Assembly (NCBI GenBank): GCA_031285965.1
Contig: JAITVD010000003.1
Location: 9,723-41,722, forward strand
Length of the DNA: 32,000 nucleotides
From: Azoarcus sp.
Lineage (GTDB): Bacteria; Pseudomonadota; Gammaproteobacteria; Burkholderiales; Rhodocyclaceae
Direction: 5' to 3'
Shown: one piece after another, positions 4,186 through 20,442 of the stretch
Layout: each line of letters starts with the position of its first letter
Numbering within the stretch: position 1 is the first letter of the stretch
The notes under the pieces: model-generated
What the model was told of the DNA's origin: nothing
Seen by the model: the letters and a program-made list of their open reading frames with translations, nothing else
Database searches by the model: none
Position numbers and translations under genes: made by a program

Positions 4186-4635
4186 ATGCACCGTATCGAC
4201 ATCAAATTGCTCGATTCCCGTCTGTGCACCCAGCCGCCCGCCTACGCCACATCCGGCTCTGCCGGTCTTGACCTGCGCGCCTGTCTGGAAGCGCCCGTCA
4301 CATTGCGTCCAGGCGAAACCGCGCTGGTTCCCAGCGGCATTGCCCTCCATCTTGCGGATTCCGGTCTGGCGGCGATTGTGCTGCCGCGCTCAGGGCTTGG
4401 GCACAAGCACGGCATCGTGCTCGGCAATCTGGTCGGGCTGATTGACTCTGATTACCAAGGGCAAGTCATGGTTTCCGTATGGAATCGCGGCAGCGAGGCG
4501 TTCACCATCACGCCGATGGAGCGCATCGCGCAACTGGTCGTCGTACCCGTCGTTCAGGCCGGATTCAATATCGTCGATGAATTCGCCGCCAGCGAGCGCG
4601 GCGAAGACGGCTTTGGCAGCACAGGCAAGCATTGA
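4186..4635 (+). CDS. dut: dUTP diphosphatase
   Basis: IDIKLLD...[13 protein letters not shown]...[38 protein letters not shown] are the canonical dUTPase motifs. The coaBC-dut synteny is conserved. Confidence 0.95.
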
Positions 4636-4651
4636 ACGTGAACAGGAGCGG

Positions 4652-5095
4652 ATGATGGCGGCACATGCGGGCATTCCTACTGGTGTGCATGTCCTGTGCG
4701 AGCGCGAAGGTCGCGTCCTGCTGCTGCGGCGGGCGGGAACCGGGTTTTTTGATGGCCTCTACAGCTTACCGGGCGGGCACATCGAGCAGGGCGAATCTGT
4801 TTTTCAGGCGGCGGTGCGGGAACTGGAAGAAGAAACCGGCTTACGAGCCAGCCCCGCCGATCTCGGCTGGCTCGGCATCATCCATCGGCACTCGGACACC
4901 AACCGGATTGACTTCTTTTTACGCGCCCGCAACTGGCAGGGCGAACCCATCCTGCGTGAGCCAGACAAATGCAGCGGCATGGGGTGGTTTGCGCGTGACG
5001 GTTTGCCGCCGGAAATCGTGCCGTATGTGAAAGCGGCACTGGATGCTGGAGAATGCGCGGGGGAGGGAGGATGGATGCTGGAACTGGGATGGTAA
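4652..5095 (+). CDS. Nudix hydrolase
   Basis: Nudix box GGHIEQGESVFQAAVRELEEETGL. ATG at 4652 with AGGAG at 4644-4648. The longer track ORF from 4442 overlaps dut and is not needed. Confidence 0.8.
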   Translation: MMAAHAGIPTGVHVLCEREGRVLLLRRAGTGFFDGLYSLPGGHIEQGESVFQAAVRELEEETGLRASPADLGWLGIIHRHSDTNRIDFFLRARNWQGEPILREPDKCSGMGWFARDGLPPEIVPYVKAALDAGECAGEGGWMLELGW

Positions 5096-5257: not shown

Positions 5258-5334
5258 GCGCCCGTAGCTCAGCTGGATAGAGTACTGCCCTCCGAAGGCA
5301 GGGGTCGTGCGTTCGAATCGCGCCGGGCGCGCCA
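5258..5334 (+). tRNA. tRNA-Arg (anticodon CCG)
   Basis: The cloverleaf folds by hand: acceptor GCGCCCG/CGGGCGC, D-arm GCTC AGCTGGATA GAGT, anticodon stem CTGCC/GGCAG with loop CTCCGAA, T-arm GTGCG TTCGAAT CGCGC, and an encoded CCA. Confidence 0.9.
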
Positions 5335-5637
5335 GTCTTTTCCGCCGTCGCCTTGCATGGCGGCGCTGAGCATGAGCGCAACGCGCTCCCATGTTGCCCG
5401 CCCCCGTTCCGTCTTTGCGCGTGCGGCGGCGCACTCGGCCATAATCTCCGGTTTTTCAAGCAGTTCCGCCAGTGCAGCGGCTTGGTCTTCATCCGGTGAT
5501 CTTTCTGCATTTCTCCATCTGGATACTGTTGCTTGGGCAATTTTTAGTCTTTTTGCAATTTCAGCATCATTTTTAATAATGCCATTGTCTTTTGCTTCAT
5601 CGAGGTAGAGGCGAATTTTTTTCATGATGTTGTCCAA
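5269..5637 (-). CDS. Phage HTH transcriptional regulator (putative repressor). Its 3' end overlaps attL and tRNA-Arg.
   Basis: Helix-turn-helix segment NDAEIAKRLKIAQATVSRWRNAE near the N-terminus. It sits at the prophage end, opposite in orientation to the structural genes. The last ~24 codons are read antisense through the att core and tRNA. Confidence 0.6.
   Translation of the reverse strand: MDNIMKKIRLYLDEAKDNGIIKNDAEIAKRLKIAQATVSRWRNAERSPDEDQAAALAELLEKPEIMAECAAARAKTERGRATWERVALMLSAAMQGDGGKDWRARRDSNARPLPSEGSTLSS
5311..5341. repeat. attL core: 31-bp perfect direct repeat (3' end of tRNA-Arg plus 7 nt)
   Basis: GTTCGAATCGCGCCGGGCGCGCCAGTCTTTT is identical at 5311-5341 and 14577-14607. Confidence 0.85.
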
Positions 5638-5650
5638 GTTGTATACGTAG

Positions 5651-5715
5651 TTTCCGATATTGTTACCAGATTGACAAGTTATTTCCAGATTGGTAAGTTT
5701 TTACTATATCGGTAA
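5651..5715. promoter_or_regulatory. Operator-like repeat cluster upstream of the HTH regulator gene
   Basis: Direct repeats CCAGATTGACAAGTT (5666-5680) and CCAGATTGGTAAGTT (5685-5699), bracketed by inverted CCGATAT / ATATCGG copies at about 5654-5660 and 5706-5712. A TTGACA lies inside the first repeat. Confidence 0.35.
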
Positions 5716-5718
5716 TTT

Positions 5719-6267
5719 CTATGGTTTATCGTAGTGACTCCAGTCTTGTCGGTCATCCGTTTTAGTTGTGATAGCAGGCGTTTTACTGTCCTGCTGTTTC
5801 CCCGCTTTATCGTGGAAAAAATCGTTCCTGATTTCTTCCACGGTCGGCAGGTTGGCGGCGTGGTACTCGATCAGTCTTATTTCTGCGGATTTAAGGGCAT
5901 TACGCTTGAATTTGTCGCTGCGCCGTCTGTCGGGTCTGTCATGTGTCTTGTCCTGCAACTCGATTGCGGAGACGACGCTGAAATCCTTGTTGCATATAAG
6001 AAAATCTACGCTTTTCATAAGAATTTTGTTAAGGGCAGCTTGTCTTGCCTTGCCGTTAGTCCTGATGCCCAGAAAGGCGCTCATTTGGGTTTAAGGCAAA
6101 ACGATGAATTCCGGCAAGGCTTCTTTTATTTTGTAATACAAAATCTGCTCTGTTTTTGTCATTACGTTTTTCGCTGTGTAGTGCAGTTTTTGGTTTTTGC
6201 CTATCCGTGCCGCAAGAATGGCCAGGACAATACAAAGCACGGCAAGGGCAATCAAAATGTTTGTCAT
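5719..6267 (-). pseudogene. DUF2726 (restriction-endonuclease-like fold) membrane-anchored protein gene interrupted by an in-frame TAA
   Basis: I translated codon by codon on the minus strand. The result is MTNILIALAVLCIVLAILAARIGKNQKLHYTAKNVMTKTEQILYYKIKEALPEFIVLP, then TAA at 6091-6093, then TQMSAFLGIRTNGKARQAALNKILMKSVDFLICNKDFSVVSAIELQDKTHDRPDRRRSDKF..., all in one frame. The N-terminal TM helix plus the VDFlic...aIELqD core matches my memory of DUF2726 architecture. Confidence 0.6.
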
Positions 6268-6326
6268 AACGGTTTTCCTATGTGCGCTGGGTGGCTATGA
6301 TGTTTATGGCGGCTCATCATACGCAC

Positions 6327-6364
6327 AAAATCCCCTCACGCGCCCCAGCGCGTGAGGGGATTTT
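6327..6364. other. Long perfect hairpin (16-bp stem) in the divergent intergenic region upstream of the phage rep gene
   Basis: AAAATCCCCTCACGCG-CCCCAG-CGCGTGAGGGGATTTT. No gene ends here, so a plain terminator role is not obvious. Confidence 0.7.
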
Positions 6365-6412
6365 GCTATGTGATTTTCATTTTTTTAATAGTGTAGCCGC
6401 AAAAAATTTTTT

Positions 6413-6458
6413 TTCGTTCGGTCACTGTAGCACCGAACGAACGTGCAATGGGTTGCAC
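6413..6458. other. Two further hairpins next to an A/T tract, just upstream of rep (candidate origin region)
   Basis: 10-bp stem TTCGTTCGGT/ACCGAACGAA (6413-6441) and 6-bp stem GTGCAA/TTGCAC (6443-6458), preceded by A6T8 at 6401-6414. Confidence 0.5.
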
Positions 6459-6522
6459 AGCTTTCCAAAAACCGCCTTTTTTTTGCCGCTGGTTTTTCCG
6501 GCACGGCACTGGGAGCTTCCCG

Positions 6523-7761
6523 ATGGCGATTGACACGGTAAAGCTGCGCTCCCCGGTGATTGACGAGGGCACGGCATGGATGCTGGAGCAGAAGTGCATC
6601 CTGCGGCAAGGCGTCCAGTTGGAAACGGGGCATGTGCTGTACGAGATCACCACGGGCGAGTTGGAAGGCTCCTTTGATTCCCGGATTATGTTCCGTGTGA
6701 TGCGCGATGACTGGGTGGTGGGGCCGGATGGGCGTGTCTGCCAGATGCCGTGTTTGCCTTTCGTCATTGTCGAGTGCTCATGGCACAAGTTTTTCTACGG
6801 TCAGAATGTGCATGGCGGCCCAGTGGATTTTCCGGTGGTGGCTGGGCTTTTCGTCAATCTGCTGGGCGAAATCATGGCGAATGACCATGAGATTTTCCAT
6901 GATGCAGCCAAGTGGGAGGTGCGGTGCGTGGACTGGGCTGAAATGTTCCATATTTCGCCAGAGGGGCAGAGGGAGTTTTTCCGCTCGTTCCGCGACGTGC
7001 ATTACCCGCGTCGGGCGAGGATGGAAGCGAAGTATGCCACGGCGATTCACTATCCCGGCAAGTCGACCACGTTCAGGGCGTATTCAAAGGGGCCGGAGTT
7101 TCTTCGCCACGGGGCGGCGGTGCTGCGCCGTGCGCTGTATGCGGTGCATATGGCGAGAAGCCGGAAGGCGGCGAATCCTTCCAAAGGTGTTTTCTTGTCG
7201 GCTCGGGATGAGCGGGCAATTAACCGCAAAGTGAAAGCGGTTCAGAAGCTGGCGGATTGGCGGCTGCGCGTGGAGGTGCAGATAAATGCCAAAAAACTGC
7301 AATACGACTTTAAGGGAAACTTCCCGAAGGTGTCCGAGATAACGGATGGTTACCTGATCTCCGTATACGAGGAACAGGTTTACAGACTTTTTAGAGAGGG
7401 ACGTTCCCAAATGGAGACTATTCGCACCTATGACCGGGTAAAGGCTCGGCTGAATTCCTGCTATGGCAAGCAGTCTGCAAATTCCCTGCTGGCGTTTTGG
7501 CTCCAGTATTCCATGCGCGGCGAGGAAGCCATAAAACAGGAATATGCCCTGCGCACTTTTTATTACAACAGGAAGAGGCTTGTGGATGCGGGCGTGTCGT
7601 GGAACCAGACGGACGTTTTCATCGTTCCGCAGGACACGGCGCTTCCACGGGATTTTGTCCCGCTACCTTCGGATGTCCGCAGGTGCTCGGGTCGCGTATC
7701 GGCTAATTCCGTCTTTAAGTTCTGTCCGGTGGAGCAGTACCGGCTTCTTAATGCGGCATAA
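6523..7761 (+). CDS. Filamentous-phage replication initiation protein (pII-like rolling-circle initiator)
   Basis: The N-terminus MAIDTVKLRSPVIDEG resembles the M13 gII start MIDMLVLRLPFIDS. The size (412 aa) and position at the head of the phage operon fit. ATG at 6523 with GGGAG at 6511-6515; the track start at 6448 is an alternative. Confidence 0.65.
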   Translation: MAIDTVKLRSPVIDEGTAWMLEQKCILRQGVQLETGHVLYEITTGELEGSFDSRIMFRVMRDDWVVGPDGRVCQMPCLPFVIVECSWHKFFYGQNVHGGPVDFPVVAGLFVNLLGEIMANDHEIFHDAAKWEVRCVDWAEMFHISPEGQREFFRSFRDVHYPRRARMEAKYATAIHYPGKSTTFRAYSKGPEFLRHGAAVLRRALYAVHMARSRKAANPSKGVFLSARDERAINRKVKAVQKLADWRLRVEVQINAKKLQYDFKGNFPKVSEITDGYLISVYEEQVYRLFREGRSQMETIRTYDRVKARLNSCYGKQSANSLLAFWLQYSMRGEEAIKQEYALRTFYYNRKRLVDAGVSWNQTDVFIVPQDTALPRDFVPLPSDVRRCSGRVSANSVFKFCPVEQYRLLNAA

Positions 7762-7774
7762 GGCCGCTTTTTTT
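7753..7774 (+). terminator. Weak terminator or attenuator-like hairpin overlapping the rep stop codon
   Basis: GCGGC-ATAAG-GCCGC followed by T7. The stem is only 5 bp. Confidence 0.3.
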
Positions 7775-7787
7775 GGAGTAATGGGAA

Positions 7788-8132
7788 ATGAGCGAAGTTT
7801 CCAATAGCAAAATTGAAAAGCCAAAGACATATACCCTGCCCATAGGACAGGCATATATCAGGGGGCGTATTTCTTCATTTCGCAAGCAGAGGGTTCAGGA
7901 TAGGGGGCTTTTGTTTTTTTCCATCCTCCGTATCCCCGCCGTAGACGAGTATAGCTTTCCCGGCACGGTTGAACTGACAAGCTCTTCGATGCTCGGGCAA
8001 ATCGGCGTTGACTGGGAAGGCTTTGTCGAGATTACGGGGATGGGAAATAACTTTGAGACGAAACCCGACCCCCATACGGGGGAAGTGACCCAGGTCAGGA
8101 GCGCCCGTAACTGGCTGCGCGTCGTCGAGTGA
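7788..8132 (+). CDS. Hypothetical phage protein in the position of the ssDNA-binding protein (gV-like by synteny only)
   Basis: 114 aa, directly after rep and before the coat genes, GGAG 9 nt upstream. I recognised no motif. Confidence 0.35.
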   Translation: MSEVSNSKIEKPKTYTLPIGQAYIRGRISSFRKQRVQDRGLLFFSILRIPAVDEYSFPGTVELTSSSMLGQIGVDWEGFVEITGMGNNFETKPDPHTGEVTQVRSARNWLRVVE

Positions 8133-8133
8133 C

Positions 8134-8427
8134 TTGATGGCTGCGGGCTGCTACGCCGCGTCCGGGCAACTGGTCGGCATGTATTCCGCCTCCGGGCAGT
8201 TGATCGGAATTTTTTCGGATTCACAGGCTCGATGTGCAGAAGTGCGCATGCCCGTTGCGGACTATCGGGCTGTCTTGGCCTCTGGCGCGGGGGCGGGCGG
8301 CGATGCGGGGGAAATTGACTATTCCAGCGGTGGCGCTGTTTTCGGTTTCTTTTTTAGCGTGACAGTGGGGCTTTGGTTTTTGGCGAAGTGCGCAGGAGTT
8401 GTTTTGCAGGCTATTCGCCGTTTCTGA
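8134..8427 (+). CDS. Phage membrane protein with a coat-protein-like C-terminal helix
   Basis: The C-terminus GGAVFGFFFSVTVGLWFLAKCAGVVLQAIRRF parallels the major coat C-terminus (..ATLAGIYITWKAAGLVLRAIRGL). It contains an internal tandem ASGQLVGMYS/ASGQLIGIFS. Start is TTG 8134 or ATG 8137. Confidence 0.45.
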   Translation: MMAAGCYAASGQLVGMYSASGQLIGIFSDSQARCAEVRMPVADYRAVLASGAGAGGDAGEIDYSSGGAVFGFFFSVTVGLWFLAKCAGVVLQAIRRF

Positions 8428-8484
8428 TTTCGGGACTTTCCTGAAAGGCGTTTCCGGGCGCTTCCCGGTTTTTGGAGTGTTGTC

Positions 8485-8694
8485 ATGAGATTTTTGAAAA
8501 ATGTTGGGTTTATCGCGGCCAGCCTCCTGTTGGCTCCTGTGGCATTTGCTGCGGTTGACCTTTCCTCGTTGACCTCTGAGGTCGACTTTTCGAGCGTCGG
8601 GACGGCAGTCTTGGCGGTAGCCGCTACCCTCGCGGGCATCTACATTACTTGGAAAGCTGCGGGGCTGGTGCTCCGCGCTATTCGTGGGCTGTGA
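8485..8694 (+). CDS. Inovirus major coat protein (pVIII-like) precursor
   Basis: Signal peptide MRFLKNVGFIAASLLLAPVAFA, then an acidic N-terminus (AVDLSSLTSEVDF), a hydrophobic core and a basic tail (KAAGLVLRAIRGL). 69 aa. GGAG 8 nt upstream. Confidence 0.75.
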   Translation: MRFLKNVGFIAASLLLAPVAFAAVDLSSLTSEVDFSSVGTAVLAVAATLAGIYITWKAAGLVLRAIRGL

Positions 8695-8700
8695 CGTAGC

Positions 8701-8784
8701 ATGGATGCCCCAGAAGGCTGGAACCTTCTTTTTGCCTTCTGGGGCATCGTCTCGGCATGGGCGGTGATTGAGGGGTTCAAATGA
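8701..8784 (+). CDS. 27-aa hydrophobic peptide (possible pVII/pIX-like minor coat protein)
   Basis: My translation is MDAPEGWNLLFAFWGIVSAWAVIEGFK. Its stop overlaps the pIII-like start in ATGA (8781-8784). There is no clear SD, and it is below the ORF-track size cutoff. Confidence 0.35.
   Translation: MDAPEGWNLLFAFWGIVSAWAVIEGFK
8704..8748 (+). promoter_or_regulatory. 15-bp perfect inverted repeat immediately after the major coat gene, with a nested short hairpin plus T-run
   Basis: GATGCCCCAGAAGGC (8704-8718) pairs with GCCTTCTGGGGCATC (8734-8748). Alternatively AGAAGG (8712-8717) pairs with CCTTCT (8724-8729), followed by TTTT. Confidence 0.5.
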
Positions 8785-9980
8785 GACTGGCCGTTGCTGC
8801 GGCAGTTCTTTTTCTTGCTTCCTCCGCCTCGGCGGCGCGGGATTACCCGGTGCAGGTCAAGGAATGGACGCTTGGCTATTTATTCGGCACAAGCCATGTT
8901 TCTGCCCACTCGTCGCTCGAAGGATGCCGCGATAACATCTATAAGGAATTTGTCGAAAATGAATCTTACTCGTATGAAAGGCGTATCGAAAAAAGGGATG
9001 AATATACATATATCCCAATTTTGAAAGAGATTGTTAAAAATGGCTATTTTGGCAACGGCAAGAATTATCGTGAGCTTGCAGGGTCTTGCAATGCGGTCAA
9101 GCATTGCCCGCACGGCGGCAACCTTAAATACAACAATGGGAAATGGATTTGCCAGAACGCCCCGGACTGCCCGGAAGGTCAGACGGCGCATGATGACGGC
9201 ACCTGCAAGCCGCCAGAGCCAGACCCCTGCCCGGAGGGGCAAATTAGGTATGAGGATGGCGAATGCGCCGTGCCGCCGGACTGTCAGGCCGCATCCGGTT
9301 ATTCCGTGCTTGTCGATGCGCTGACGAACTGCATGGATTACTGCGAGGTGGGCGATTGCGGGCGCTCTGCTACGGGCTGGAAGGATGGGCAGGTTGTCTT
9401 TGCCTCGTATGCCTGTGTCTATACGGGGAAGCATTGCCGCCCTGCGCCGCCTCCGCCTGATGGAGGCGGGGGTGATGATTCGGGTGGTGGAAATGACCCC
9501 GGTGAGCCGGGGGATGGCTCTGGGGGTAACGATGATGGTGGCTCGGGTGGAGGTGGCTCGGGGAGCGGCACTGGTGGCGGCGGCGGAACGGGTACAGGTG
9601 GCGATGGGGACGGCGATGGGTCGGATGGTGGAGGGACAGGCGGCAATGTTGAGGTGCCGATTGATCCGCCAGTCGAAAGCAAGTGCCCTTCGTGGTTGAA
9701 GTGGATTTGTGGCGATAGCACGGTGGAGGAACTGGCCATTCCGCCCGATGCGCAGTTCGACGAATCATTTTTTTCCGGCACGTTCGATGCGTTGAAGGGC
9801 TGGAGCTTGCCCAACTATTCTGGTTCTTGCTTACCTTTAAATGTGGACATTCCGTTTTTTGGGCGCTCGTATTCCACATCGTTTCATTGTGAGTTGGTCA
9901 GGGATGTTTTTCCGGTTTTTGAAACGGTGATGGCGGCGCTTTGGGCAGTGCTCGCTTTCCGCATTGTGATGGGAGCCTGA
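8781..9980 (+). CDS. pIII-like minor coat / adsorption protein
   Basis: Signal peptide, a Cys-rich N-terminal region with repeated CPEGQ..DG.C motifs, a ~70-aa Gly/Asp/Ser linker (GGGGDDSGGGNDPG...GGGTGG), and a C-terminal domain ending in the membrane anchor VMAALWAVLAFRIVMGA. Confidence 0.7.
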   Translation: MRLAVAAAVLFLASSASAARDYPVQVKEWTLGYLFGTSHVSAHSSLEGCRDNIYKEFVENESYSYERRIEKRDEYTYIPILKEIVKNGYFGNGKNYRELAGSCNAVKHCPHGGNLKYNNGKWICQNAPDCPEGQTAHDDGTCKPPEPDPCPEGQIRYEDGECAVPPDCQAASGYSVLVDALTNCMDYCEVGDCGRSATGWKDGQVVFASYACVYTGKHCRPAPPPPDGGGGDDSGGGNDPGEPGDGSGGNDDGGSGGGGSGSGTGGGGGTGTGGDGDGDGSDGGGTGGNVEVPIDPPVESKCPSWLKWICGDSTVEELAIPPDAQFDESFFSGTFDALKGWSLPNYSGSCLPLNVDIPFFGRSYSTSFHCELVRDVFPVFETVMAALWAVLAFRIVMGA

Positions 9981-9981
9981 C

Positions 9982-10281
9982 ATGGCATTGCCAGTTTTTG
10001 TCCCGTTCATGGCTTCTGCGCTGTCATGGCTGCTGCGCGAGGTCGTCGTTAAGTTCATTGTGTTCTCGGCAATTTTCGCGCTGGTTGCCTTCCTTGTACC
10101 CCGCGCGGTGTCATATCTGGGTGATTTTGTCTCGCCGGGGGCGCTGTCTGGTGCGTTTTCCGGGATTGATTCCGGGGTCTGGTTTTTCCTGCGGTTCTTC
10201 AGGCTGGATTACGGGGTTCCGCTGCTGGTCTCGGCTTACGTGTCCCGGTTTTTGATTCGGCGCTTGCCGTTTATCGGCTGA
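9982..10281 (+). CDS. pVI-like small hydrophobic minor coat protein (DUF2523-like)
   Basis: 99 aa with multiple hydrophobic helices and a basic tail (SRFLIRRLPFIG). It sits between the pIII-like and Zot-like genes as in Pf/Cf-type inoviruses, and starts 1 nt after the preceding stop. Confidence 0.55.
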   Translation: MALPVFVPFMASALSWLLREVVVKFIVFSAIFALVAFLVPRAVSYLGDFVSPGALSGAFSGIDSGVWFFLRFFRLDYGVPLLVSAYVSRFLIRRLPFIG

Positions 10282-10284
10282 AAA

Positions 10285-11415
10285 ATGTCAATAAAGGTTT
10301 ATACCGGGCGCATGGGTTCCGGGAAAAGCTACGAGGTGGTGACGGTTGTCATCCTCGGTGCTTTGAAGATGGGGCGGCGTGTCGTCTCGAACATCGCAGG
10401 GCTGGACTATGGGGAAATGCGCCGTGTTCTGATAGGGCAGAGGGTCGAAGAGGGCAAGTTGGGCACGATTGTCCAGGTTGACCATGAGGCAGTCACGAGC
10501 AAGGGCTTCTGGCTCACTGATGGGGACACGGATGCCTTTATTCGGCCCGGTGACTTGTTGGTGCTCGATGAAGTCTGGCGTTTCTATGACGGTTTCGGTT
10601 CCGCTACGCCGGATGCTGTAATGAACTTTTTCAGGATGCACCGCCATTTCACGCATCCTGAGACCGGGCAGACGTGCGATGTTGCCCTGATAACGCAGGA
10701 CATAGGCGACATAGGTCGCAAGATACGGGCAGTCGTCGAAGAGACGTATTACATGGAAAAGCTCACGGTCGTGGGCGCTGCCAAACGCTATCGGGTCGAC
10801 ATCTTCTCCGGTGCGAGGAAATACCGCGATGCGCCTTTCCGTTCTCTCCAGCGTGCCTACAACCCGAATTATTTCTGTCTTTATCAGTCGCATTCCCAGA
10901 AAGGGGACGGCAGTGCGGATGCCAAAGAGGTCAACATTGATGATCGCGGGAATATTTTCAAGGGTAAGTTTTTCCGGCTGGCCGTGCCGCTGGCTGTTGT
11001 GCTGTTCGGTGCTGGCATTTACCGCCTTGTCGGTTTTTTCGGCACGGCTCCTGTCAGCAAGCCGGGGGTAGCGGCGGTTCCGGTGGCTACACAGTCGACC
11101 TCTTCCCCCGCGCCGATCGGTGCGCCCCCTGCCCGTCCGTCTCGCCATGACGCAGTATCCGGGCTTCTGTCGTCTGGTCGCGCCCGTCTGGTGTATTCAG
11201 GCATGGTCGGCGGTAAGCGGCTGGCCAAGGTCGAATTTCTGAACGGGGAGGGCGGGTTGGTGGACGCATACTCGGAAGAGGCTCTTTTCCTCGCGGGTTG
11301 GCGGCTGTTCTTCGGCACGGACGGGCGGACAGCCATTTTGAGCAATGGCGAGGGACTACATGTTGTCGCAGTTGAGGTGCGTCATCGGCTGCCGCGCATT
11401 GATCGGAAGCCATGA
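10285..11415 (+). CDS. Zot / pI-like phage assembly ATPase
   Basis: N-terminal Walker A GRMGSGKSYE, Walker B-like LLVLDEVW, and a central TM helix (FRLAVPLAVVLFGAGIYRLVGFF). This is the typical zonular occludens toxin family layout. Confidence 0.8.
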   Translation: MSIKVYTGRMGSGKSYEVVTVVILGALKMGRRVVSNIAGLDYGEMRRVLIGQRVEEGKLGTIVQVDHEAVTSKGFWLTDGDTDAFIRPGDLLVLDEVWRFYDGFGSATPDAVMNFFRMHRHFTHPETGQTCDVALITQDIGDIGRKIRAVVEETYYMEKLTVVGAAKRYRVDIFSGARKYRDAPFRSLQRAYNPNYFCLYQSHSQKGDGSADAKEVNIDDRGNIFKGKFFRLAVPLAVVLFGAGIYRLVGFFGTAPVSKPGVAAVPVATQSTSSPAPIGAPPARPSRHDAVSGLLSSGRARLVYSGMVGGKRLAKVEFLNGEGGLVDAYSEEALFLAGWRLFFGTDGRTAILSNGEGLHVVAVEVRHRLPRIDRKP

Positions 11416-12635
11416 TGCGCCCGCTCGTCTTTGCCGCACTGCTGTTGCTGTGCCGCCCGACGTTGGCAGAAAAGGTCGATATCCTTTTTAATGATATTTC
11501 GGTGGTTGAATTTTCATATTTCGTGCTGAACGATCTGCGCAAGGAATCGTTTTTGATGGACGATGATTTCTTGCAGGTCGACAAACGAATGACGGCGCGG
11601 TTTTCGGACATTGAGACGGAGGATGTTTTCTATCACCTGCGTCATGTCTTGTCCGGCATCGGCTACACGGTCTCCAGCCGCAACGGCATTCACTACATAT
11701 CGAAGGTGAATGAAGGCGATGGCGAAGTCTTCGTTTATTTTCCGAGATACCGTGGCGCGGAGTACCTGCGCGAGCTGGCGGGAACGGTCGTTGATTCGGG
11801 TGGGTTCTCTGTGACGCGCCCGGTTCCGGGGGCAGAGGGTATCAGGCCGGAAGCGTCGCTTCAGCCGTCGGTCAACGATTGGGTTTCCCGTCGCGTGGAC
11901 GATGCACTGGTCTACCGGGGGTCGCTGGTTGAGGTGGGGCGGCTGGAAAAGCTGCTGGCGCAGGTCGACAGGCCGTCGGGCGAGGTGCTGGTCAAGGCGG
12001 CGATTTTCGAGGTCAGAAAAGAATCCACAAGAAATAGTGCGGTTTCCGTGGCTCTTGGGCTGCTGGATTCTGCGCGTGGGCTTGGCGTGTCAGTTGTCAA
12101 TGGCGTTCTTGATGCGTCGTCGTCCGTCCGGCTGCGGCTGGGGAATGTTGATGCGGCATGGTCGGTTCTTTCTGGCGATGAGCGTTTCAGGGTATTAAGC
12201 GCCCCGACGGTGCGCGTGCGTAGCGGCGAGAAGGCACGCTTTCAGGCGGGTGCGGAAGTCCCCACGCTCGGGAACGTCACGCATACGGGGGTGGGGCAGT
12301 CCGTCCAGTCCGTCGAGTACAGGTCTTCAGGCGTGATACTCGAATTGAAACCGGAAATCCGCGAGGATGGCATCGTGCTGTCCGTGACGCACCAGCTTTC
12401 CAGTTTTCAGCAAACGGATACGGGCGTAAATGTCTCGCCGACGCTTCTGAAGCGCGAGCTTCAGACCACGGTTTCCATGAAAGATGGCGAGCTTGTCCTT
12501 CTCGGCGGATTGGACGAGAAGAAAGAGTCGTCTGGCAAGAAAGGGCTACCGTTCCTGCCGGATTTTTTCGCCGGACGCCATGATGGCGCGGAAGATACGG
12601 AAATTCTGTTGCTGCTTCATGTGAAAAGAATGTAG
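11412..12635 (+). CDS. Phage-encoded secretin (pIV-like, GspD superfamily)
   Basis: Signal peptide and a C-terminal secretin domain with ..VSMKDGELVLLGGLDEKKESSGKKGLPFLPDFF......EILLLLHVK. ATGA overlap with the Zot-like gene. Confidence 0.8.
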   Translation: MMRPLVFAALLLLCRPTLAEKVDILFNDISVVEFSYFVLNDLRKESFLMDDDFLQVDKRMTARFSDIETEDVFYHLRHVLSGIGYTVSSRNGIHYISKVNEGDGEVFVYFPRYRGAEYLRELAGTVVDSGGFSVTRPVPGAEGIRPEASLQPSVNDWVSRRVDDALVYRGSLVEVGRLEKLLAQVDRPSGEVLVKAAIFEVRKESTRNSAVSVALGLLDSARGLGVSVVNGVLDASSSVRLRLGNVDAAWSVLSGDERFRVLSAPTVRVRSGEKARFQAGAEVPTLGNVTHTGVGQSVQSVEYRSSGVILELKPEIREDGIVLSVTHQLSSFQQTDTGVNVSPTLLKRELQTTVSMKDGELVLLGGLDEKKESSGKKGLPFLPDFFAGRHDGAEDTEILLLLHVKRM

Positions 12636-12664
12636 TTGACAGATAGTACCATTATTGATACTAT
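12636..12664 (+). promoter_or_regulatory. Near-consensus sigma-70 promoter with an embedded inverted repeat, directly abutting the hicA start codon
   Basis: TTGACA (12636-12641), a 17-nt spacer, and TACTAT (12659-12664). Only 5 nt separate the -10 from the ATG at 12670. ATAGTA (12643-12648) and TACTAT form an inverted repeat spanning the spacer. Confidence 0.5.
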
Positions 12665-12669
12665 AAAAC

Positions 12670-12924
12670 ATGTCCTCAATAATCCAGATACTTGACCAGA
12701 TGCGGCGCGAACCGGGCAATGTCCGGTATGCTGATTTGCTAAAGGTATGCTCTGGCTTTTTTGGTAAAGCTCGACAGTCTGGTGGTAGCCATGTCGTTTT
12801 TAAGACGCCGTGGCTTGGGGATCCAAGGATCAATATCCAGAATGACAAGGGGTGAGCCAAGGCGTATCAAGTGCGCCAGGTACTTGCCGCCATAGATAAG
12901 CTAGGGGGCCATCATGAATCTTGA
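12670..12924 (+). pseudogene. hicA: HicA-family mRNA interferase toxin gene with an in-frame TGA at 12853-12855
   Basis: The 61-aa product ends ..GGSHVVFKTPWLGDPRINIQNDKG. The same frame continues as AKAYQVRQVLAAIDKLGGHHES to a TGA at 12922-12924, overlapping the hicB ATG (12914) by 11 nt. The K-A-K-x-Y-Q-V-R-Q-V tail is, from memory, a conserved HicA C-terminal segment. Confidence 0.6.
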
Positions 12925-13240
12925 CCATTACACCTACCGTGTTACTTGGTCGCCGGAAGATGGCGAGCATGTCGGCCTGTGCGTTGAGTTTCCGTCGCTT
13001 TCGTGGTTGGCGGCCTCGCCTGATGAGGCGCTTTCCGGTATCCGGCAAGTCGTTTTTGCTGTTGTGGAAGACATGAAAGGCAGCAGAGAAGAGATTCCGG
13101 CGCCAATGGCGGAACGTGACTATAGCGGCAAGTTTCAGGTGCGCATCCCGCCAGAAGTTCATCGTGCCCTTGCCATGAAAGCCGCTGAGCAGGGCGTTAG
13201 TTTGAACCGCTTTGTAAATGCAAAATTAGCGGCAGGCTGA
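12914..13240 (+). CDS. hicB: HicB-family antitoxin with a C-terminal ribbon-helix-helix
   Basis: N-terminal HicB fold (YTYRVTWSPEDGEHVGLCVEFPSLSWLAASPDEAL) and a C-terminal RHH (GKFQVRIPPEVHRALAMKAAEQGVSLNRFV). Confidence 0.8.
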   Translation: MNLDHYTYRVTWSPEDGEHVGLCVEFPSLSWLAASPDEALSGIRQVVFAVVEDMKGSREEIPAPMAERDYSGKFQVRIPPEVHRALAMKAAEQGVSLNRFVNAKLAAG

Positions 13241-13419
13241 TTACGCAGCAAAAGCTAGGTTTTTTGCTGCAAGCCCAGCGTCCGCCCAGAATGAGACAGG
13301 CGGCATTCGCCAGCAGCGCGTGATGCTGCTTGGTCACAGATGGCGTGATAGCTGCAAGCCAGCCCAAGGTTCAGGCTGTGATGCAGGCTCACGGCGCTGC
13401 CGCGCCGCGCAAGGCTCTT

Positions 13420-13587
13420 GGCTTGCAGGTCAAGGGAATGCTATTCACTTGCGGGTTTGGGCAGCGCCCAAGGTTTGGCTTGCAGGTCAAGGGAATGCCA
13501 TTCCCTTGCGGGTTTGGGCAGCGCCCAAGGTTTGGCTTGCAGGTCAAGGGAATGCTATTCCCTTGCGGGCTTGGGCAGCGCCCAAGG
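13420..13587. repeat. Three tandem 57-bp repeats, each carrying two palindromes
   Basis: Units start at 13420, 13477 and 13534, with the pattern GGCTTGCAGGTCAAGGGAATGC(T/C)ATTC(A/C)CTTGCGGG(T/C)TTGGGCAGCGCCCAAGG(TTT/A). Palindrome 1 is CAAGGGAAT..ATTCCCTTG and palindrome 2 is TTGGGC-AGC-GCCCAA. The array lies 65 bp upstream of the integrase start. Confidence 0.9.
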
Positions 13588-13652
13588 ATGTTTTTAACGG
13601 TGTTTTTGCACATCCATGATGAGAATCCGCATTTTGACCATTTGCTTGAATC

Positions 13653-14522
13653 ATGGATGTTACGTTTGATGATGTCGTCTTGTACTATTTTTCAGTGCGA
13701 GGCCAGATGCGCCCTGTTTTGCCTGAGCGTGACCGCTATAGCTTCAAACATCTCCATGCGTTTTTTGGCGGTCGACAGATGTCCGCTATCCGGCGCTGTG
13801 ATGTCCGTGCCTATATTGCCTGCCGCCAAGCTGCCGGGGTGAAGATTTCCACAGTGCAGCGGGAATTGCGCCTGTTTTCGGCGGCGGCGAATCTTTTTCG
13901 GGTGGAGCACGGTCTAGATGGTTTGGCGAATCCTGCTGCCAATCTTTGCATTTCAAAGCAGCCGGGTCGTGTTCGGTGGATTACGCGGGAACAGGCGGGT
14001 AATCTCGTGCTTGAGGCGGAAAGGTATGCGAAGCGTCCGCATTTTCCTGTTTTTCTCAGGCTGGCGCTGAACACGGGCTGCCGACGTGGTGAGCTTCTGA
14101 ATCTTGAATGGTCGCGCATTAGCCTAGATCAGGCGTTGCTTGTTTTGGAGCCTGAGCAAAATAAGTCCCACCGTCGCCGTTCTGTGCCGCTAAATCTTGA
14201 TGCGTTGGCCGCGCTGAAACGAATGCGGCACTGGCAGGCAGAACATGGGGTAAATTCCCGCTATGTATTCGGCTATGAGGGCGGGCGCAGGATTGGATGC
14301 CTAAAAACAGCCATGAGGGGGGCATTGCAACGGGCTGGGATTGATAATTTCAGGATTCACGATTTGCGGCATACGTTCGCAAACTGGCTTGTTATGCAAG
14401 GTGAATCTATCTACGTTGTTAAAGATTTGCTTGGTCATGCCAATGTGGAGCAGACAGAGATATACGCGCATCTTGCGCCAACCCAAGGCAAGGCCGCTGT
14501 AGATAGGTTGTTGCCTTTTTGA
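13653..14522 (+). CDS. int: Tyrosine recombinase / phage integrase
   Basis: Catalytic signature in order: R in LNTGCRRGELL, HDLRHTF, and LLGH...TEIYAHL (Tyr). 289 aa. It lies adjacent to attR. Confidence 0.85.
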   Translation: MDVTFDDVVLYYFSVRGQMRPVLPERDRYSFKHLHAFFGGRQMSAIRRCDVRAYIACRQAAGVKISTVQRELRLFSAAANLFRVEHGLDGLANPAANLCISKQPGRVRWITREQAGNLVLEAERYAKRPHFPVFLRLALNTGCRRGELLNLEWSRISLDQALLVLEPEQNKSHRRRSVPLNLDALAALKRMRHWQAEHGVNSRYVFGYEGGRRIGCLKTAMRGALQRAGIDNFRIHDLRHTFANWLVMQGESIYVVKDLLGHANVEQTEIYAHLAPTQGKAAVDRLLPF

Positions 14523-14547
14523 TACGCCTGTGAAAAAATCGACGAAT

Positions 14548-14600
14548 GAGTGCGGCTCCAAAGGCAGGGGGCGTGTGTTCGAATCGCGCCGGGCGCGCCA
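14548..14600 (+). other. Partial tRNA-Arg copy (anticodon arm to CCA) at attR
   Basis: GAGTGCGGCTCCAAAGGCAGGGGGCGTGTGTTCGAATCGCGCCGGGCGCGCCA aligns with 5281-5334 of the intact tRNA but lacks the 5' acceptor and D arm. The anticodon stem is not complementary. Confidence 0.8.
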
Positions 14601-14607
14601 GTCTTTT
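14577..14607. repeat. attR core: second copy of the 31-bp direct repeat
   Basis: Identical to 5311-5341. Confidence 0.85.
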
Positions 14608-14627: not shown

Positions 14628-15857
14628 ATGGCACTGATTGTCCAGAAATACGGCGGCACGTCGGTAGGCAGCCCTGATCGCATCAAGAACGTCGCCAAGA
14701 GAGTCGCAAAATTTCACGCGCAGGGGCATCAGGTCGTCGTCGTCGTCTCCGCGATGAGCGGCGAAACCAATCGGCTGCTTGCCCTCGCCAAAGATCTGGC
14801 ATCGTCTCCCGACCCGCGCGAGCTGGACATGGTGGTTTCCACTGGCGAGCAAGTCACCATCGGCTTGCTTGCGATGGCGCTGCAAGCGATAGGCGTTCCC
14901 GCAAAAAGTTATACGGGCGGTCAAGTAAAAATCCTGACTGACGATGCCTATACCAAGGCACGCATCCTCAATATCGACGATGCCGCCCTGCGCCGTGACC
15001 TGTCTGACGGCAAAGTTGTCATCGTGGCCGGGTTTCAGGGTGTCGATGCCGACGGCAATATCACGACTCTTGGCCGGGGCGGTTCCGATACGACTGGCGT
15101 CGCGCTCGCTGCGGCCTTGTGCGCCGATGAATGCCAGATATACACCGACGTTGATGGTGTCTACACCACCGATCCGCGCATCGTGCCCGAAGCGCGCAAG
15201 CTGGATGTCATCACCTTTGAAGAAATGCTGGAAATGGCAAGTCTTGGCTCCAAGGTGCTGCAAATCCGTTCAGTCGAATTCGCCGGCAAATATAAGGTCA
15301 AGTTGCGCGTGCTCTCCAGTTTTGAAGAAAACCAAGGCGAAGGCACGCTCATCACCGTTGAGGAAAATAAAAGCATGGAACAACCCATCATCTCAGGGAT
15401 CGCTTTCAACCGCGACGAAGCCAAGATTACCGTCCAAGGCGCTCCCGACCAGCCGGGCATCGCCTATCAGATACTTGGTCCGGTGGCGGAGGCCAATATC
15501 GATGTCGACATGATTATCCAGAACTCCGGGCACGATGGCCTCACTGACTTCTCCTTTACGGTCGCCCGCGCCGATCTGGACAAAACGGTTGGCGTGCTCG
15601 ACCGCGTCAAGGCTGTCGTCAATGCCCAAGCCATCGAAACCGATAAAAGCCTGTGCAAGGTTTCGATCATCGGCGTTGGCATGCGCTCGCATCCGGGTGT
15701 GGCCGCGAAAATGTTCCGCGCCCTCTCGGAGGAAGGCATCAACATCAACATGATCTCTACCTCCGAAATCAAAATTTCCGTCGTCATAGAGGAAAAATAT
15801 CTTGAATTGGCCGTGCGTGTGCTGCACGAAGTATTCGAGCTAGATAGCGCCAATTGA
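14628..15857 (+). CDS. lysC: Aspartate kinase
   Basis: [14 protein letters not shown]..., [12 protein letters not shown], and C-terminal tandem ACT domains. I used the ATG at 14628. The track ORF start at 14550 would read through the tRNA fragment. Confidence 0.9.
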
Positions 15858-15913: not shown

Positions 15914-16006
15914 GGAGACGTGGCCGAGAGGTCGAAGGCACTCCCCTGCTAAGGGAGCATGCGGGCAAAACCTGCATCGAGGGTTCGAATCCCTCCGTCT
16001 CCGCCA
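15914..16006 (+). tRNA. tRNA-Ser (anticodon GCT), class II with a long variable arm
   Basis: Acceptor GGAGACG/CGTCTCC, anticodon stem CTCCC/GGGAG with loop CTGCTAA, long extra arm, T-arm GAGGG TTCGAAT CCCTC, and an encoded CCA. Confidence 0.9.
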
Positions 16007-16378
16007 AATATTAAATAAATCAATAAGTTATAAACAAAAAGATTCCATTCTCTCACATAGTTCCCACAAAAAATTTTCCTGCAATTCCCTACCCGATGTC
16101 TGCCTGCGGATGCTCCGGTTTGCCAGAGCAGTGAGAGGCGTTGGCGGCTCAAGCGATGCTCTCAGCACAAGGGCAGGCTGCTCTAGCCAAATAAACAGAA
16201 GATTGCGGAAACGGTCTGAACAATCACCCAGACAATCTGGATTTAATAGATTTTCTATGCCTTACCCTGTTAAAGTGTCATATCAAGTCGGGTCATGGAC
16301 ATTTCAAAGCGGAGGATATTCTTGTAAATATGCTGCTAGCATCGTTGTTGATATCACGCTATTTCAGAGGTTAAATTC

Positions 16379-17062
16379 ATGTCATTGTCGTCTGATTATA
16401 CGATTGAGATGCACGGAATTAGTAAATGCTTTCCTTTTGGCGAGGAGAGTATTTGTGCTATTGATCATGTCTCTCTTCAAGTCCATAAAGGTTCATTTGC
16501 GGCAATTTGCGGTCCTTCTGGTAGTGGGAAAAGTACCTTACTCAATATATGTGGTCTGATCGACACTTTTAATGAAGGTCGATATCTCTTAAATAAGACT
16601 GATATAGGCATATTGAATGAATCTGATCGTACAAAACTTCGTCGCAAAGAAATCGGATTTATTTTTCAGAGCTATAACTTAATACCTGTGATGAATGTAT
16701 TTGATAATATTTCATATCCTCTACATCTCTTAGGGGAAAGTAAATCGCAAATAAAGTCGAAAACATTTGAAATTCTAGAACAAGTCGGTTTAGCAAAATT
16801 AGCAGCCAGAATTCCAGATCAACTGTCTGGCGGTCAGCGGCAACGTGTAGCTATTGCACGTGCACTCATAAAACATCCAAAGCTAATTATTGCAGATGAG
16901 CCAACCGCAAATCTTGATACAAAAACTGCTGAAATTATTATTGCTCTCATAAAAGAACTAGGGCAACAATTTTCAACGACTTTTTTAATAGCAACGCATG
17001 ATAAACGAATGGCGCTTCATTGTAATTATATTTATAATATTACTGATGGAGTTTTAGCATGA
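16379..17062 (+). CDS. ABC transporter ATP-binding protein (LolD/MacB-type)
   Basis: Walker A GPSGSGKST, signature LSGGQRQRVAIARAL, Walker B LIIADEPT, and an H-loop ATHD. Confidence 0.9.
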   Translation: MSLSSDYTIEMHGISKCFPFGEESICAIDHVSLQVHKGSFAAICGPSGSGKSTLLNICGLIDTFNEGRYLLNKTDIGILNESDRTKLRRKEIGFIFQSYNLIPVMNVFDNISYPLHLLGESKSQIKSKTFEILEQVGLAKLAARIPDQLSGGQRQRVAIARALIKHPKLIIADEPTANLDTKTAEIIIALIKELGQQFSTTFLIATHDKRMALHCNYIYNITDGVLA

Positions 17063-18217
17063 ATGCTTTATTGTTTGCATGTAAAAATGTTTTGCGTAAT
17101 CGTAGGAGATCAGTTACAACCATTTTTGTTGCCGCTATTGGCTGTGCTGCTCTTCTGATTGCAGGCGGGTTTACTTTATATACTTACGAGATGTTAGTGG
17201 ACAATGCCGTAAGAGAATCAGGACATATTACTATTGCCGATAAACGCTTTTTTGTCGATGAAGAAGAAACGCCAATGCAATTTGGTATTGATCATTCGGT
17301 AGACAGGACTTTTATCGAATGATGATAAATCTGTTATTTTTTCTGCTATAGGTGCAAATATAAGCGAAGAAGTCCATGCTAGAGGTGCTTTTTTGAAAAG
17401 CGTGGAAGGAAACATCAATGAAAATATGAATATAGATGATATACCTAGGATTTTTATTGGTAAAGAGCTTGCCCGTAGTTTAAAGGCTCATATTGGCAGC
17501 AATCTCACTATAATGACAACTACTACAACTGGAAGTATGAATGCGATGGATGTTGTTGTTTCTGCGATTATTACAACTGGTTGGCATGAAGCGGATAAAC
17601 GTTTGATATTGCTTGATATTAAACATGCGCAACGTCTATTGATGACGGATAAGGTAAACACCTTATCTATTTACTTATTTGAAAGCAGTCGCATTAATAA
17701 AATGCAAGAAAATCTCTTATCTTTTGATGCTGACAAGCTAGCAACTAGGCCTTGGAGCGAGCAAGCTTTTTATTATGCTTCGGTTAAAGCTCTATACAAT
17801 AGGATTTTTGGTCTATTGGGTATTATTATCATGATGCTTGTATTGTTTTCTGTTGCTAACACACTGTCGTCATCTGTTATAGAAAGAACTAGAGAAATTG
17901 GTACATTCAGGGCACTTGGCAGTCATCCCTATGAAATAATAACACAATTTGTACATGAAGGAATGCTAATTGGAGTATTTGGAATATTAATCGGCAATAT
18001 GATAGCACTCATTATTGCTTCATTATTACCGTATTTTGGATTAGAAATGCCGCCACCTCCAGGACGTTCGATAGGCTATCCATTATTGGTAAGTACTCCA
18101 CTTTTTCTGTACATGTTTGTTGACATGTTAATTGTTTCGTTATGTTGCATCGCTGCATTCTATTCAAGTAGAAAGGCGGTACGTATGCAAATTATGGAGG
18201 CATTGCGTCATGTTTAA
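17059..18217 (+). pseudogene. FtsX/MacB-type ABC permease, split by a frameshift near 17303-17319
   Basis: ORF 17059-17322 gives TM1 plus the start of the periplasmic domain. The shifted frame is open from 17303 and carries the rest of the periplasmic domain and the FtsX TM2-4 region (..ERTREIGTFRALGS..). The ATGA-type overlap with the ATPase gene at 17059-17062 is intact. Confidence 0.7.
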
Positions 18218-20337: not shown

Positions 20338-20442
20338 TGTTCAGATGACCTTTCGGCTTGCCGCAGACACGGCAACGGGGATGGCGGCGCATCCCCGTTT
20401 TAATGAGTGGAAAAAGTGTTGCGCTGGCAAAGATGCCGCCTG

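Follow-up and report, generated by a model that had tools for sequence, protein, structure and literature searches.

Within a 32,000-nucleotide (nt) stretch of DNA from an Azoarcus sp. assembly (contig JAITVD010000003.1; hereafter the window), a block of genes resembling those of filamentous phages lies between two copies of the 3′ end of a tRNA-Arg(CCG) gene. This block, most probably an integrated inovirus, is the subject of the present analysis. A repeat finder returned a 52-nt direct repeat of 94% identity (5290-5341 against 14556-14607), within which 31 nt are perfectly conserved (5311-5341 = 14577-14607) and correspond to the last 24 nt of the tRNA gene, as called by ARAGORN, together with 7 nt downstream. 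The presence of a perfect 31-mer twice within 11 kb is far beyond chance, and the initial annotation, which had described this repeat as bracketing the block, was correct on this point. With a single copy of the core, the unit measures 9,266 bp, and the GC content drops from ~0.60 in the flanks to 0.43-0.57 inside it. All three mismatches between the 52-nt repeats fall on the phage side of attR, indicating that attP contributed a tRNA-like segment of its own and that the crossover occurred inside the 31-bp core. The phage attP thus carries ~52 nt of tRNA-like sequence, and crossover within the identical core regenerated the tRNA at attL and left a partial copy at attR. The reconstructed attP junction reads ...GGCAGGGGGCGTGTGTTCGAATCGCGCCGGGCGCGCCAGTCTTTTCCGCCGTCGCCTTGCATGG..., and the empty attB junction reads ...GGCAGGGGTCGTGCGTTCGAATCGCGCCGGGCGCGCCAGTCTTTTTTCCCATAAGCACAG....

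An unoccupied version of this site, which the initial annotation had proposed to look for, was found in related organisms. Metagenome contigs were searched with a degenerate DNA pattern composed of the tRNA-Arg 3′ end, a short spacer and the start of lysC. Two contigs (L133 and L134) carry the identical tRNA-Arg(CCG), ~30 nt, lysC and then tRNA-Ser(GCT), with the prophage absent. Their lysC shares 84% nucleotide identity with that of the window; therefore, these empty sites belong to a related organism and not to the same one. An exact look-up of the flanking LysC protein returned no record.

Between the att sites, the block holds a complete Ff-like gene set, namely a pII/X-family replication initiator (Rep), a single-stranded DNA (ssDNA)-binding protein (SSB), coat proteins, a pIII-like protein, pVI, the assembly ATPase pI/Zot and a pIV secretin (Table 1). 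The entire set is encoded on the + strand, and every open reading frame (ORF) of the initial annotation was recovered at its position; two minus-strand genes at the left end, encoding a helix-turn-helix (HTH) regulator and an interrupted DUF2726 protein, were absent from it. The genes had been described as joined by ATGA overlaps or gaps of 1-4 nt, which holds for most junctions: 1 nt separates SSB from g97 and pIII from pVI, 3 nt separate pVI from Zot, and ATGA overlaps link the 27-amino-acid (aa) ORF to pIII and Zot to the secretin. The gap between the major coat gene and the 27-aa ORF is 6 nt. Two junctions are longer than the description implied, namely those between Rep and SSB (26 nt) and between g97 and the major coat gene (57 nt).

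Profile searches returned significant matches for Zot, Secretin, DUF2523, Phage_integrase, Rep (PF05144/TIGR01629) and the coat PHROGs, the families for which the initial annotation had suggested a search. Translated from the homology-supported ATG at 6523, Rep passed both PF05144 (Phage_CRI; 31.2 bits, cut-off 21.7) and TIGR01629 (rep_II_X; 40.8, cut-off 29) and matched phrog_702 at 1e-25; from the previously listed start at 6448, it gave no Pfam match, and we replaced that start accordingly. The secretin aligned end to end (residues 5-407) with phrog_1012, "protein IV of M13" (6.1e-88), and its scores against the NCBIfam models for GspD, PilQ and YscC were weak and far below the cut-offs. 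The Walker A motif of Zot (GSGKS, in the N-terminal P-loop) is invariant in the Zot alignment (A1). Furthermore, the lengths of the core proteins agree with those of relatives (Zot 369-377 aa, secretin 405-412, pVI 98-99 and integrase 287).

The smaller structural genes were assigned on several grounds. The translated major coat protein has a signal peptide, an acidic N-terminus, a transmembrane helix and a basic C-terminus. The 97-aa product of g97, whose start is more likely the ATG at 8137, is 37-65% identical to the same-position protein in relatives. No family match was obtained for the 27-aa ORF in the profile searches, and a 29-30-aa ORF is called at its position in L129 and L131, two of the related loci described below. 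The protein in the pIII position matches phrog_11232, phrog_3942 and phrog_7187 over its C-terminal 60-70 aa and is 27-48% identical to its positional counterparts in relatives; from its position and architecture, we infer a pIII-like function. As a separate observation, an inverted repeat (8704-8748) with perfect 15-bp arms and a 15-nt loop occurs just past the major coat gene, within the 27-aa ORF, a position that recalls the terminator/attenuator after gVIII of the Ff phages.

The block ends with a tyrosine integrase that is short and XerC/D-like, with no arm-binding N-domain evident and with an alignment to XerD that starts at approximately residue 40. Its catalytic R, HxxR, H and Y residues align with those of XerD (1A0P), the R lying in TGCRRGEL and the others in HDLRH, LLGH and IYAH; the position of the beta-hairpin Lys aligns to an Arg and is ambiguous. 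Given that the protein scores far below the XerC/XerD equivalog cut-offs with its catalytic residues in place, we assigned it as a phage integrase of the short XerC/D-like type. Together, the profile matches and the att sites uphold the initial description of a gene-complete inovirus that is integrated at tRNA-Arg(CCG) and encodes both a pIV-type secretin and a tyrosine integrase.

Upstream of Rep, a T-run is followed by a hairpin with a 10-bp stem and GTAGCAC in its loop (6427-6433) and, immediately thereafter, by a second hairpin with a 6-bp stem. This two-hairpin structure, with an invariant GTAGCAC in loop 1, is found 50-100 nt upstream of Rep in the window and in seven relatives with a homologous Rep, and GTAGCAC occurs only once in the prophage. 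Folded alone as ssDNA, each of the eight sequences gave a z-score between -3.9 and -6.6, and none of 200 shuffles folded as well. The stems in the window (TTCGTTCGGT/ACCGAACGAA and GTGCAA/TTGCAC) have no sequence in common with those of the relatives (for example, GATCAGCGG/CCGCTGATC and TCCGG/CCGGA), with the pairing retained. A MAFFT alignment of the origins was gapless and left two sequences one base out of register; the sequences were therefore folded separately, and we claim no formal covariation statistics. We infer that the hairpins form a candidate origin at which Rep would nick. The longer inverted repeat farther upstream, between the divergent DUF2726 and Rep genes, is possibly a terminator/insulator or an ssDNA hairpin.

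Table 1 Features of the prophage and its immediate flanks (window coordinates).
Feature	Coordinates	Strand	Evidence and remarks
tRNA-Arg(CCG), intact	5258..5334	+	Host attB target, 3′ end regenerated at attL; ARAGORN
HTH (Cro/CI-type) regulator, 118 aa as integrated	5269..5625	-	PF01381 1.9e-06; phrog_638 1.2e-16
attL core	5311..5341	+	Perfect 31-bp repeat; imperfect repeat spans 5290-5341
DUF2726 accessory gene, interrupted	5719..6267	-	In-frame TAA at 6091-6093; PF10881
Perfect inverted repeat, 18 bp, 4-nt loop	6326..6365		Between divergent DUF2726 and Rep genes
Candidate (+)-strand replication origin	6413..6458	+	T-run, hairpin 1, hairpin 2
Rep, rolling-circle replication initiator, pII/X family	6523..7761	+	PF05144, TIGR01629, phrog_702
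SSB, gV position	7788..8132	+	phrog_8473 1.1e-12; no Pfam match
g97, small membrane protein with coat-like C-terminus, candidate minor coat	8134..8427	+	phrog_3679 5.4e-06
Major coat protein	8485..8694	+	phrog_2186 8.8e-16; phrog_6548 "major coat protein" 2.3e-06
27-aa hydrophobic ORF, pVII/pIX-like candidate	8701..8784	+	ATGA overlap with pIII start
pIII-like adsorption/termination protein	8781..9980	+	Signal peptide, Cys-rich N-domain, Gly/Asp linker, C-terminal membrane anchor
pVI-like minor coat (DUF2523)	9982..10281	+	PF10734 2.9e-07; phrog_974 4.9e-16
pI/Zot assembly ATPase	10285..11415	+	PF05707 1.5e-27, 96.8 bits (cut-off 20.3); phrog_197 4.4e-65
pIV-type outer-membrane secretin	11412..12635	+	PF00263 7.7e-25, 87.9 bits; phrog_1012
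Promoter-like site before hicA	12636..12664	+	TTGACA-17-TACTAT, extended -10 TG; consensus match only
Putative HicA-family toxin gene, truncated	12670..12924	+	TGA 12853-12855 (codon 62 of ~85); ORF as called 12670-12855
HicB antitoxin, intact	12914..13240	+	PF05534 8.9e-19, 67.6 bits (cut-off 21); phrog_9151
Main non-coding region, 412 nt	13241..13652	+	Contains 3 x 57-nt array
Tyrosine integrase, 289 aa	13653..14522	+	PF00589 8.7e-29, 100.9 bits; phrog_1 5.8e-57
attR	14556..14607	+	tRNA-like phage segment 14556-14576 (3 mismatches to tRNA) + 31-bp core 14577-14607
lysC (aspartate kinase), host right flank	14628..15857	+	PF00696 + ACT domains

The relatives of the element were surveyed through a Zot alignment, which yielded 43 IMG/VR contigs as well as 80 loci in species-representative genomes. 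In all 80 genomic loci, and in 39 of the 43 contigs, the gene immediately downstream of Zot encodes a secretin homolog; the four remaining contigs end shortly after Zot. Moreover, in 28 of the 80 genomic loci, the Zot-secretin block is enclosed in a bracket of 10-17.5 kb formed by a tRNA gene and a copy of 18-52 nt from its 3′ end; the tRNA is most often Met, with Lys, Thr, Cys, Phe, His and Pro among the others. A profile search placed a tyrosine recombinase ORF inside every one of these 28 brackets, within 1.5 kb of an att end in 20. Two of the loci, L079 and L082 (tRNA-Phe), share the layout of the window, with the tRNA on the left and a + strand integrase abutting attR. In the literature, Roux et al. 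2019 (PMC6813254) had likewise delimited 582 inovirus prophages by direct repeats located within a tRNA or adjacent to an integrase, and the same study described shared tyrosine-recombinase families as well as 15 toxin-antitoxin sets in 181 inoviruses. The initial annotation had regarded an own secretin, an own integrase and toxin-antitoxin cargo as an uncommon combination and possibly a new lineage; these counts and precedents, together with a Cupriavidus prophage discussed below (PMC10011098), do not support that view, and the combination is common and already described.

The closest relatives are uncultivated Rhodocyclales inoviruses (L131/L132, L127 and L084/L129) and an Azovibrio restrictus prophage (L012/L087), with identities of 55-72% for Zot, up to 64% for the secretin, up to 72% for pVI and 58% for the integrase (L131). 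These relatives agree with the element in gene order, in having a toxin-antitoxin slot behind the secretin and in a DUF2726 gene upstream of Rep, and those with the same Rep share the GTAGCAC origin hairpins; some have extra small genes between pVI and Zot. In L131/L132 (Zot 57%), the order is Zot, secretin, BrnT/BrnA, non-coding region and integrase. L131 sits in tRNA-Pro(CGG) with a 47-nt att repeat (4596-4642 and 15214-15260) and the intact tRNA beside the integrase; given that its integrase is 58% identical to that of the window, related integrases here use different tRNA targets and orientations. L127 (Zot 68%) has no integrase on its 8.7-kb contig. Beyond these relatives, a large protein database contains hundreds of Zot homologs at 45-68% identity, mainly from Rhodocyclales and other Betaproteobacteria. 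A nucleotide search of the prophage against 50,697 GenBank phage records returned no match, and among GenBank phage proteins the best Zot identity was 35%, to Dulem virus 52 and Inovirus D_HF5_61, circular 8-kb saliva inoviruses that have Zot and a secretin and no annotated integrase. Collectively, the prophage represents a new species or genus within a betaproteobacterial clade that is abundant and largely uncultivated and whose architecture has already been published.

Two related loci showed arrangements of their own. In L004, from the Azoarcus metagenome-assembled genome (MAG) Iy174_bin16 (Zot 59%), direct repeats at 4694-4972 and 12552-12830 lie exactly 7,858 bp apart and the contig ends in the second copy, probably reflecting tandem copies of an inovirus of 7.9 kb located downstream of tRNA-Lys(CTT). 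In L128 (3727-8572 of an 8.6-kb contig), Zot and the secretin are followed by a gene with a type VI secretion system Hcp domain and by other non-phage genes, which may represent a prophage boundary or a chimeric contig.

Within the element, the core genes are all intact, and only the two accessory genes hicA and DUF2726 are broken, each by one nonsense codon. The hicAB pair noted in the initial annotation is therefore intact only in its HicB half. Homologs of hicA encode 82-85 aa at 70-80% identity, several of them named "toxin HicA" by NCBI, and have Lys or Arg in the column of the window's stop; the 22 codons that follow in the window still agree with the consensus and would run into the start of hicB. 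The GSH motif is conserved as well. The same stop is present in an independent Logan assembly (L001), which carries the same pIII-to-hicB stretch. The match to HicA_toxin (PF07927) is weak (E = 0.06; 13.9 bits, cut-off 27), with no PHROG or NCBIfam match, and we call the gene a putative HicA-family homolog on the basis of its named close relatives and its HicB partner, a toxin-then-antitoxin order that fits HicAB.

At least 14 related inoviruses have the DUF2726 gene upstream of Rep, in the opposite orientation. Where the window has its stop (...LP*TQMS...), the relatives have Gln (...LAQVQMS...), and the PF10881 score rises from 65.7 bits for the fragment to 82 bits upon read-through, covering profile positions 2-123 of 126. 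Other copies, with a transmembrane N-terminus, include those at L018:5046-5399, L007:3674-4069 and L109:383-868. Both nonsense lesions look recent, and neither touches a core function. The position occupied by HicAB in the window (12670-13240) holds a RelE-like protein with an HTH partner in L127 (6924-7549) and BrnT/BrnA in L131 (12450-13020); the occurrence of different pairs in close relatives indicates that the post-secretin position is a variable toxin-antitoxin slot. Such variation and the fresh inactivation of the putative HicA toxin exemplify cargo turnover in inoviruses.

The repeat array that the initial annotation had placed after hicAB was also recovered, as three 57-nt units (13418-13588) that are 95-96% identical. 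Each unit comprises a 21-nt palindrome (CAAGGGAATGcCATTCCCTTG) and a GC TTGGGCagcGCCCAA hairpin of 6 bp. The non-coding region as a whole folds as ssDNA with z = -5.3, a score inflated by the tandem palindromes. The equivalent position of L131 contains numerous hairpins and a palindromic array unrelated to that of the window. By analogy with the Ff phages, in which an intergenic region follows gIV, the region after hicB might tentatively be regarded as a candidate packaging signal and/or complementary-strand origin. Several other roles for the array were considered and set aside. Arm-type sites of the integrase are unlikely, as the enzyme is of the short XerC/D-like type with no extra N-domain. 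A general operator of the HTH regulator was rejected because the element has no further copy of the 21-nt palindrome, not even in the promoter region between the divergent Rep and DUF2726 genes. A host repeat or a clade-wide feature was rejected because neither the 57-nt unit nor the palindrome is present in the rest of the window, in the 126 loci or in IMG/VR, and only 8 of 107 relatives have any array downstream of the secretin. Part of a conserved gene was rejected because tblastx detected no similarity to the equivalent region of L131.

At the left end, the ORF of the HTH regulator has no stop before the att core, which it enters at approximately aa 94, and ends inside the tRNA. The arrangement implies that integration swaps the C-terminal tail of the regulator: in the reconstructed attP, the protein would have 196 aa instead of 118 and would run antisense into the 3′ end of the integrase gene. 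Homology to the regulator family stops at approximately aa 93, right at the core, and in the reconstructed episomal form the DUF3693 homology is not completed. Regulators reading through the att core were also found in L079, L082 (both tRNA-Phe) and L131 (tRNA-Pro); with the window, these four elements represent three tRNA targets (Arg, Phe and Pro). The regulator of L079/L082 is homologous to that of the window (E = 2e-08), whereas L131 has a different, Cro/YdaS-like HTH protein. The extensions in L079/L082 measure ~35 aa, and the two frames in L131 are about equal in length (183 and 180 codons). No ssrA-like tag was found on the reconstructed viral forms, whose tails (...PHGCF, ...AAHFL and ...PHFLH) have no -AA terminus. 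If the isoforms differed in stability or activity, the tail swap would act as an integration-set switch between silent lysogeny and chronic virion production, an idea that we consider doubtful. We view the arrangement as a compact-genome overlap with possible regulatory consequences.

Taken together, these observations lead us to read the block, with a probability of about 0.85, as a temperate inovirus of 9,266 bp integrated in the 3′ end of tRNA-Arg(CCG) of an Azoarcus-like betaproteobacterium. The element is core-intact, and virion production is predicted from its genes. In the life cycle we propose, the integrase would catalyze integration, and excision would restore a circular replicative form. 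Rep would nick the (+) strand at the GTAGCAC hairpin upstream of rep and initiate rolling-circle replication, SSB would coat the progeny ssDNA, and the hairpin-rich non-coding region after hicB may supply the packaging signal and/or the complementary-strand origin. For virion extrusion, pI/Zot would act in the inner membrane and the phage-encoded secretin in the outer, without lysis and without a host secretin. The HTH regulator would keep the prophage quiet, and HicAB may represent former addiction or defence cargo whose toxin was recently inactivated.

Several points weigh against this reading. No excisionase or recombination directionality factor was recognized in the element, and an exact-match scan of JGI metagenome contigs with the phage-left junction returned zero matches, a result that speaks neither for nor against circular forms. 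The replication origin and the role of the non-coding region are deduced, and the pIII, 97-aa and 27-aa proteins were assigned by position and architecture only. The nonsense mutations in two accessory genes indicate that some mutational decay has begun. Finally, the source is a MAG, which makes the host assignment and the population frequency uncertain.

Some of the same points would suit a recently immobilized, decaying prophage, one whose core looks intact but which makes no virions and is becoming a fixed island, and which the host may retain for HicB, for the repressor (superinfection immunity) or for the secretin. Such an element would account for the nonsense mutations at hicA codon 62 and at the Gln codon of DUF2726, which are independent single-base changes, for the missing directionality factor and circular junction, and for the recovery of phage protein on only one long contig and one short Logan contig. 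However, comparison with relatives shows no shortening of the integrase, the regulator or any of the nine genes for replication and morphogenesis; the att core has no mismatch, and the origin hairpins are preserved. Furthermore, the codons past both stops still follow the consensus, which points to very recent mutations in cargo that the phage can spare, and toxin loss from a toxin-antitoxin pair leaves phage function unaffected. We therefore give a decaying prophage a clear minority chance. The initial description of the element as recently active and not a relic holds insofar as the core genes are intact and is tempered by the two nonsense mutations and by the failure to find a circular junction.

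An artefact of assembly, in which an episomal phage was joined to a host contig through the shared 31-52 nt, is very improbable. A metagenomic source and an attP with tRNA-like sequence would both permit such a join, but both junctions are oriented as expected for site-specific integration, and the three mismatches are confined to the phage side of attR. Final k-mers in metagenome assembly are normally longer than the 31-nt identity, and 28 relatives, in isolate genomes as well as MAGs, have the same integrated arrangement. A chromosomal secretion or pilus-like island, which the resemblance of the Zot ATPase and the secretin to secretion machinery and the weak NCBIfam GspD/PilQ matches might suggest, is effectively refuted already by the pII/X Rep, phage SSB, major coat and DUF2523 genes in Ff order, by the end-to-end match of the secretin to the M13 pIV PHROG with GspD/PilQ far below cut-offs, and by the bounding att sites, the empty site and the existence of circular 8-kb relatives.

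Other parts of the window yielded separate observations. Directly 3′ of a tRNA-Ser(GCT) gene (15914-16006) lies a low-GC island (16007-19000; 35-39% compared with ~60% in the host) with genes for an ABC ATPase (16379-17062), an FtsX-like permease (17393-18217) and a LolA-like protein (18132-18821). Homology to L133/L134 ends right after the tRNA-Ser. We looked for a duplicate of the tRNA-Ser 3′ end and for an integrase belonging to this island and found neither; the island probably represents a transporter cassette gained by horizontal transfer, at what would be a second tRNA hotspot. Farther along, a + strand ORF (20407-21582) that matches NAD-GH (PF10712, 5e-102) overlaps a 640-aa ORF on the opposite strand (20443-22365), and one or the other is probably spurious. 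Tandem repeats of 75 nt x 2 and 24 nt x 4.5 occur at 30080-30285, in the GC-rich right part of the window.

Among the known filamentous phages, the Ff phages (M13, fd and f1) and IKe share with the element the established gene order gII-gV-(small coats)-gVIII-gIII-gVI-gI-gIV (see also PMC10011098), an own pIV secretin, the pII/X Rep family and a structured intergenic region, with sequence similarity at the profile level only. In contrast to the element, the Ff phages are strictly episomal and have no integrase, att site, repressor or toxin-antitoxin pair. Pseudomonas phages Pf4 and Pf5 resemble the element in being temperate, with XerC/D-type tyrosine integrases and insertion into tRNA genes, and Pf phages commonly carry a ParDE toxin-antitoxin moron (PMC7549136); their Rep and coat families differ, and Pf4 lacks a homolog of G4P/secretin, a host secretin presumably serving in its place (PMC7549136). 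CTXphi and the Ralstonia RSM phages are also integrating inoviruses with a Zot-type pI, the RSM Zot being ~27% identical to that of the window. CTXphi relies on host XerCD at dif and on a host secretin, and RSM1 integrates at tRNA-Ser (PMC10011098).

A close parallel is a prophage of Cupriavidus STM 6070, which has a XerD-like tyrosine recombinase, a pIV secretin and a pfam05144 pII and resides in tRNA-Met (PMC10011098); it corresponds to locus L031 of our survey. Like the element, it combines Zot followed by a pIV secretin, a Phage_CRI Rep, its own integrase, a duplicated tRNA 3′ end (47 nt, in a 10.9-kb bracket) and a betaproteobacterial host. It differs in targeting tRNA-Met and not tRNA-Arg(CCG), and its integrase lies beside the intact tRNA on the opposite strand, whereas that of the window lies at the far end beside attR. 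The identities to the window are 39% for Zot, 36% for the secretin, 41% for Rep and 31% for the integrase, and no homologs of the window's HicA/HicB were detected in L031. Given that the secretin is universal among the relatives fetched from this clade and tRNA-specific integrases are frequent, neither feature is unusual. What the element adds is a cleanly delimited, near-intact inovirus whose nearest named phages share only ~35% Zot identity, and which supplies exact att sites, reconstructions of attP and attB, and an origin motif that can be tested.

Outside the filamentous phages, the regulator running across att resembles the integration-dependent immunity of mycobacteriophage BPs, where the attP core likewise lies within the repressor ORF and where the repressor form encoded by the prophage is the shorter one (PMC4557955). 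BPs and its kin are tailed dsDNA phages of Actinobacteria, unlike this filamentous ssDNA phage, and the viral form of the BPs repressor carries a C-terminal ssrA-like degradation tag (PMC4557955); the likeness would be one of mechanism only. If it were borne out, the window would hold a filamentous ssDNA phage analogue of mycobacteriophage integration-dependent immunity, and the arrangement of a repressor across attP offers a small, experimentally testable lead.

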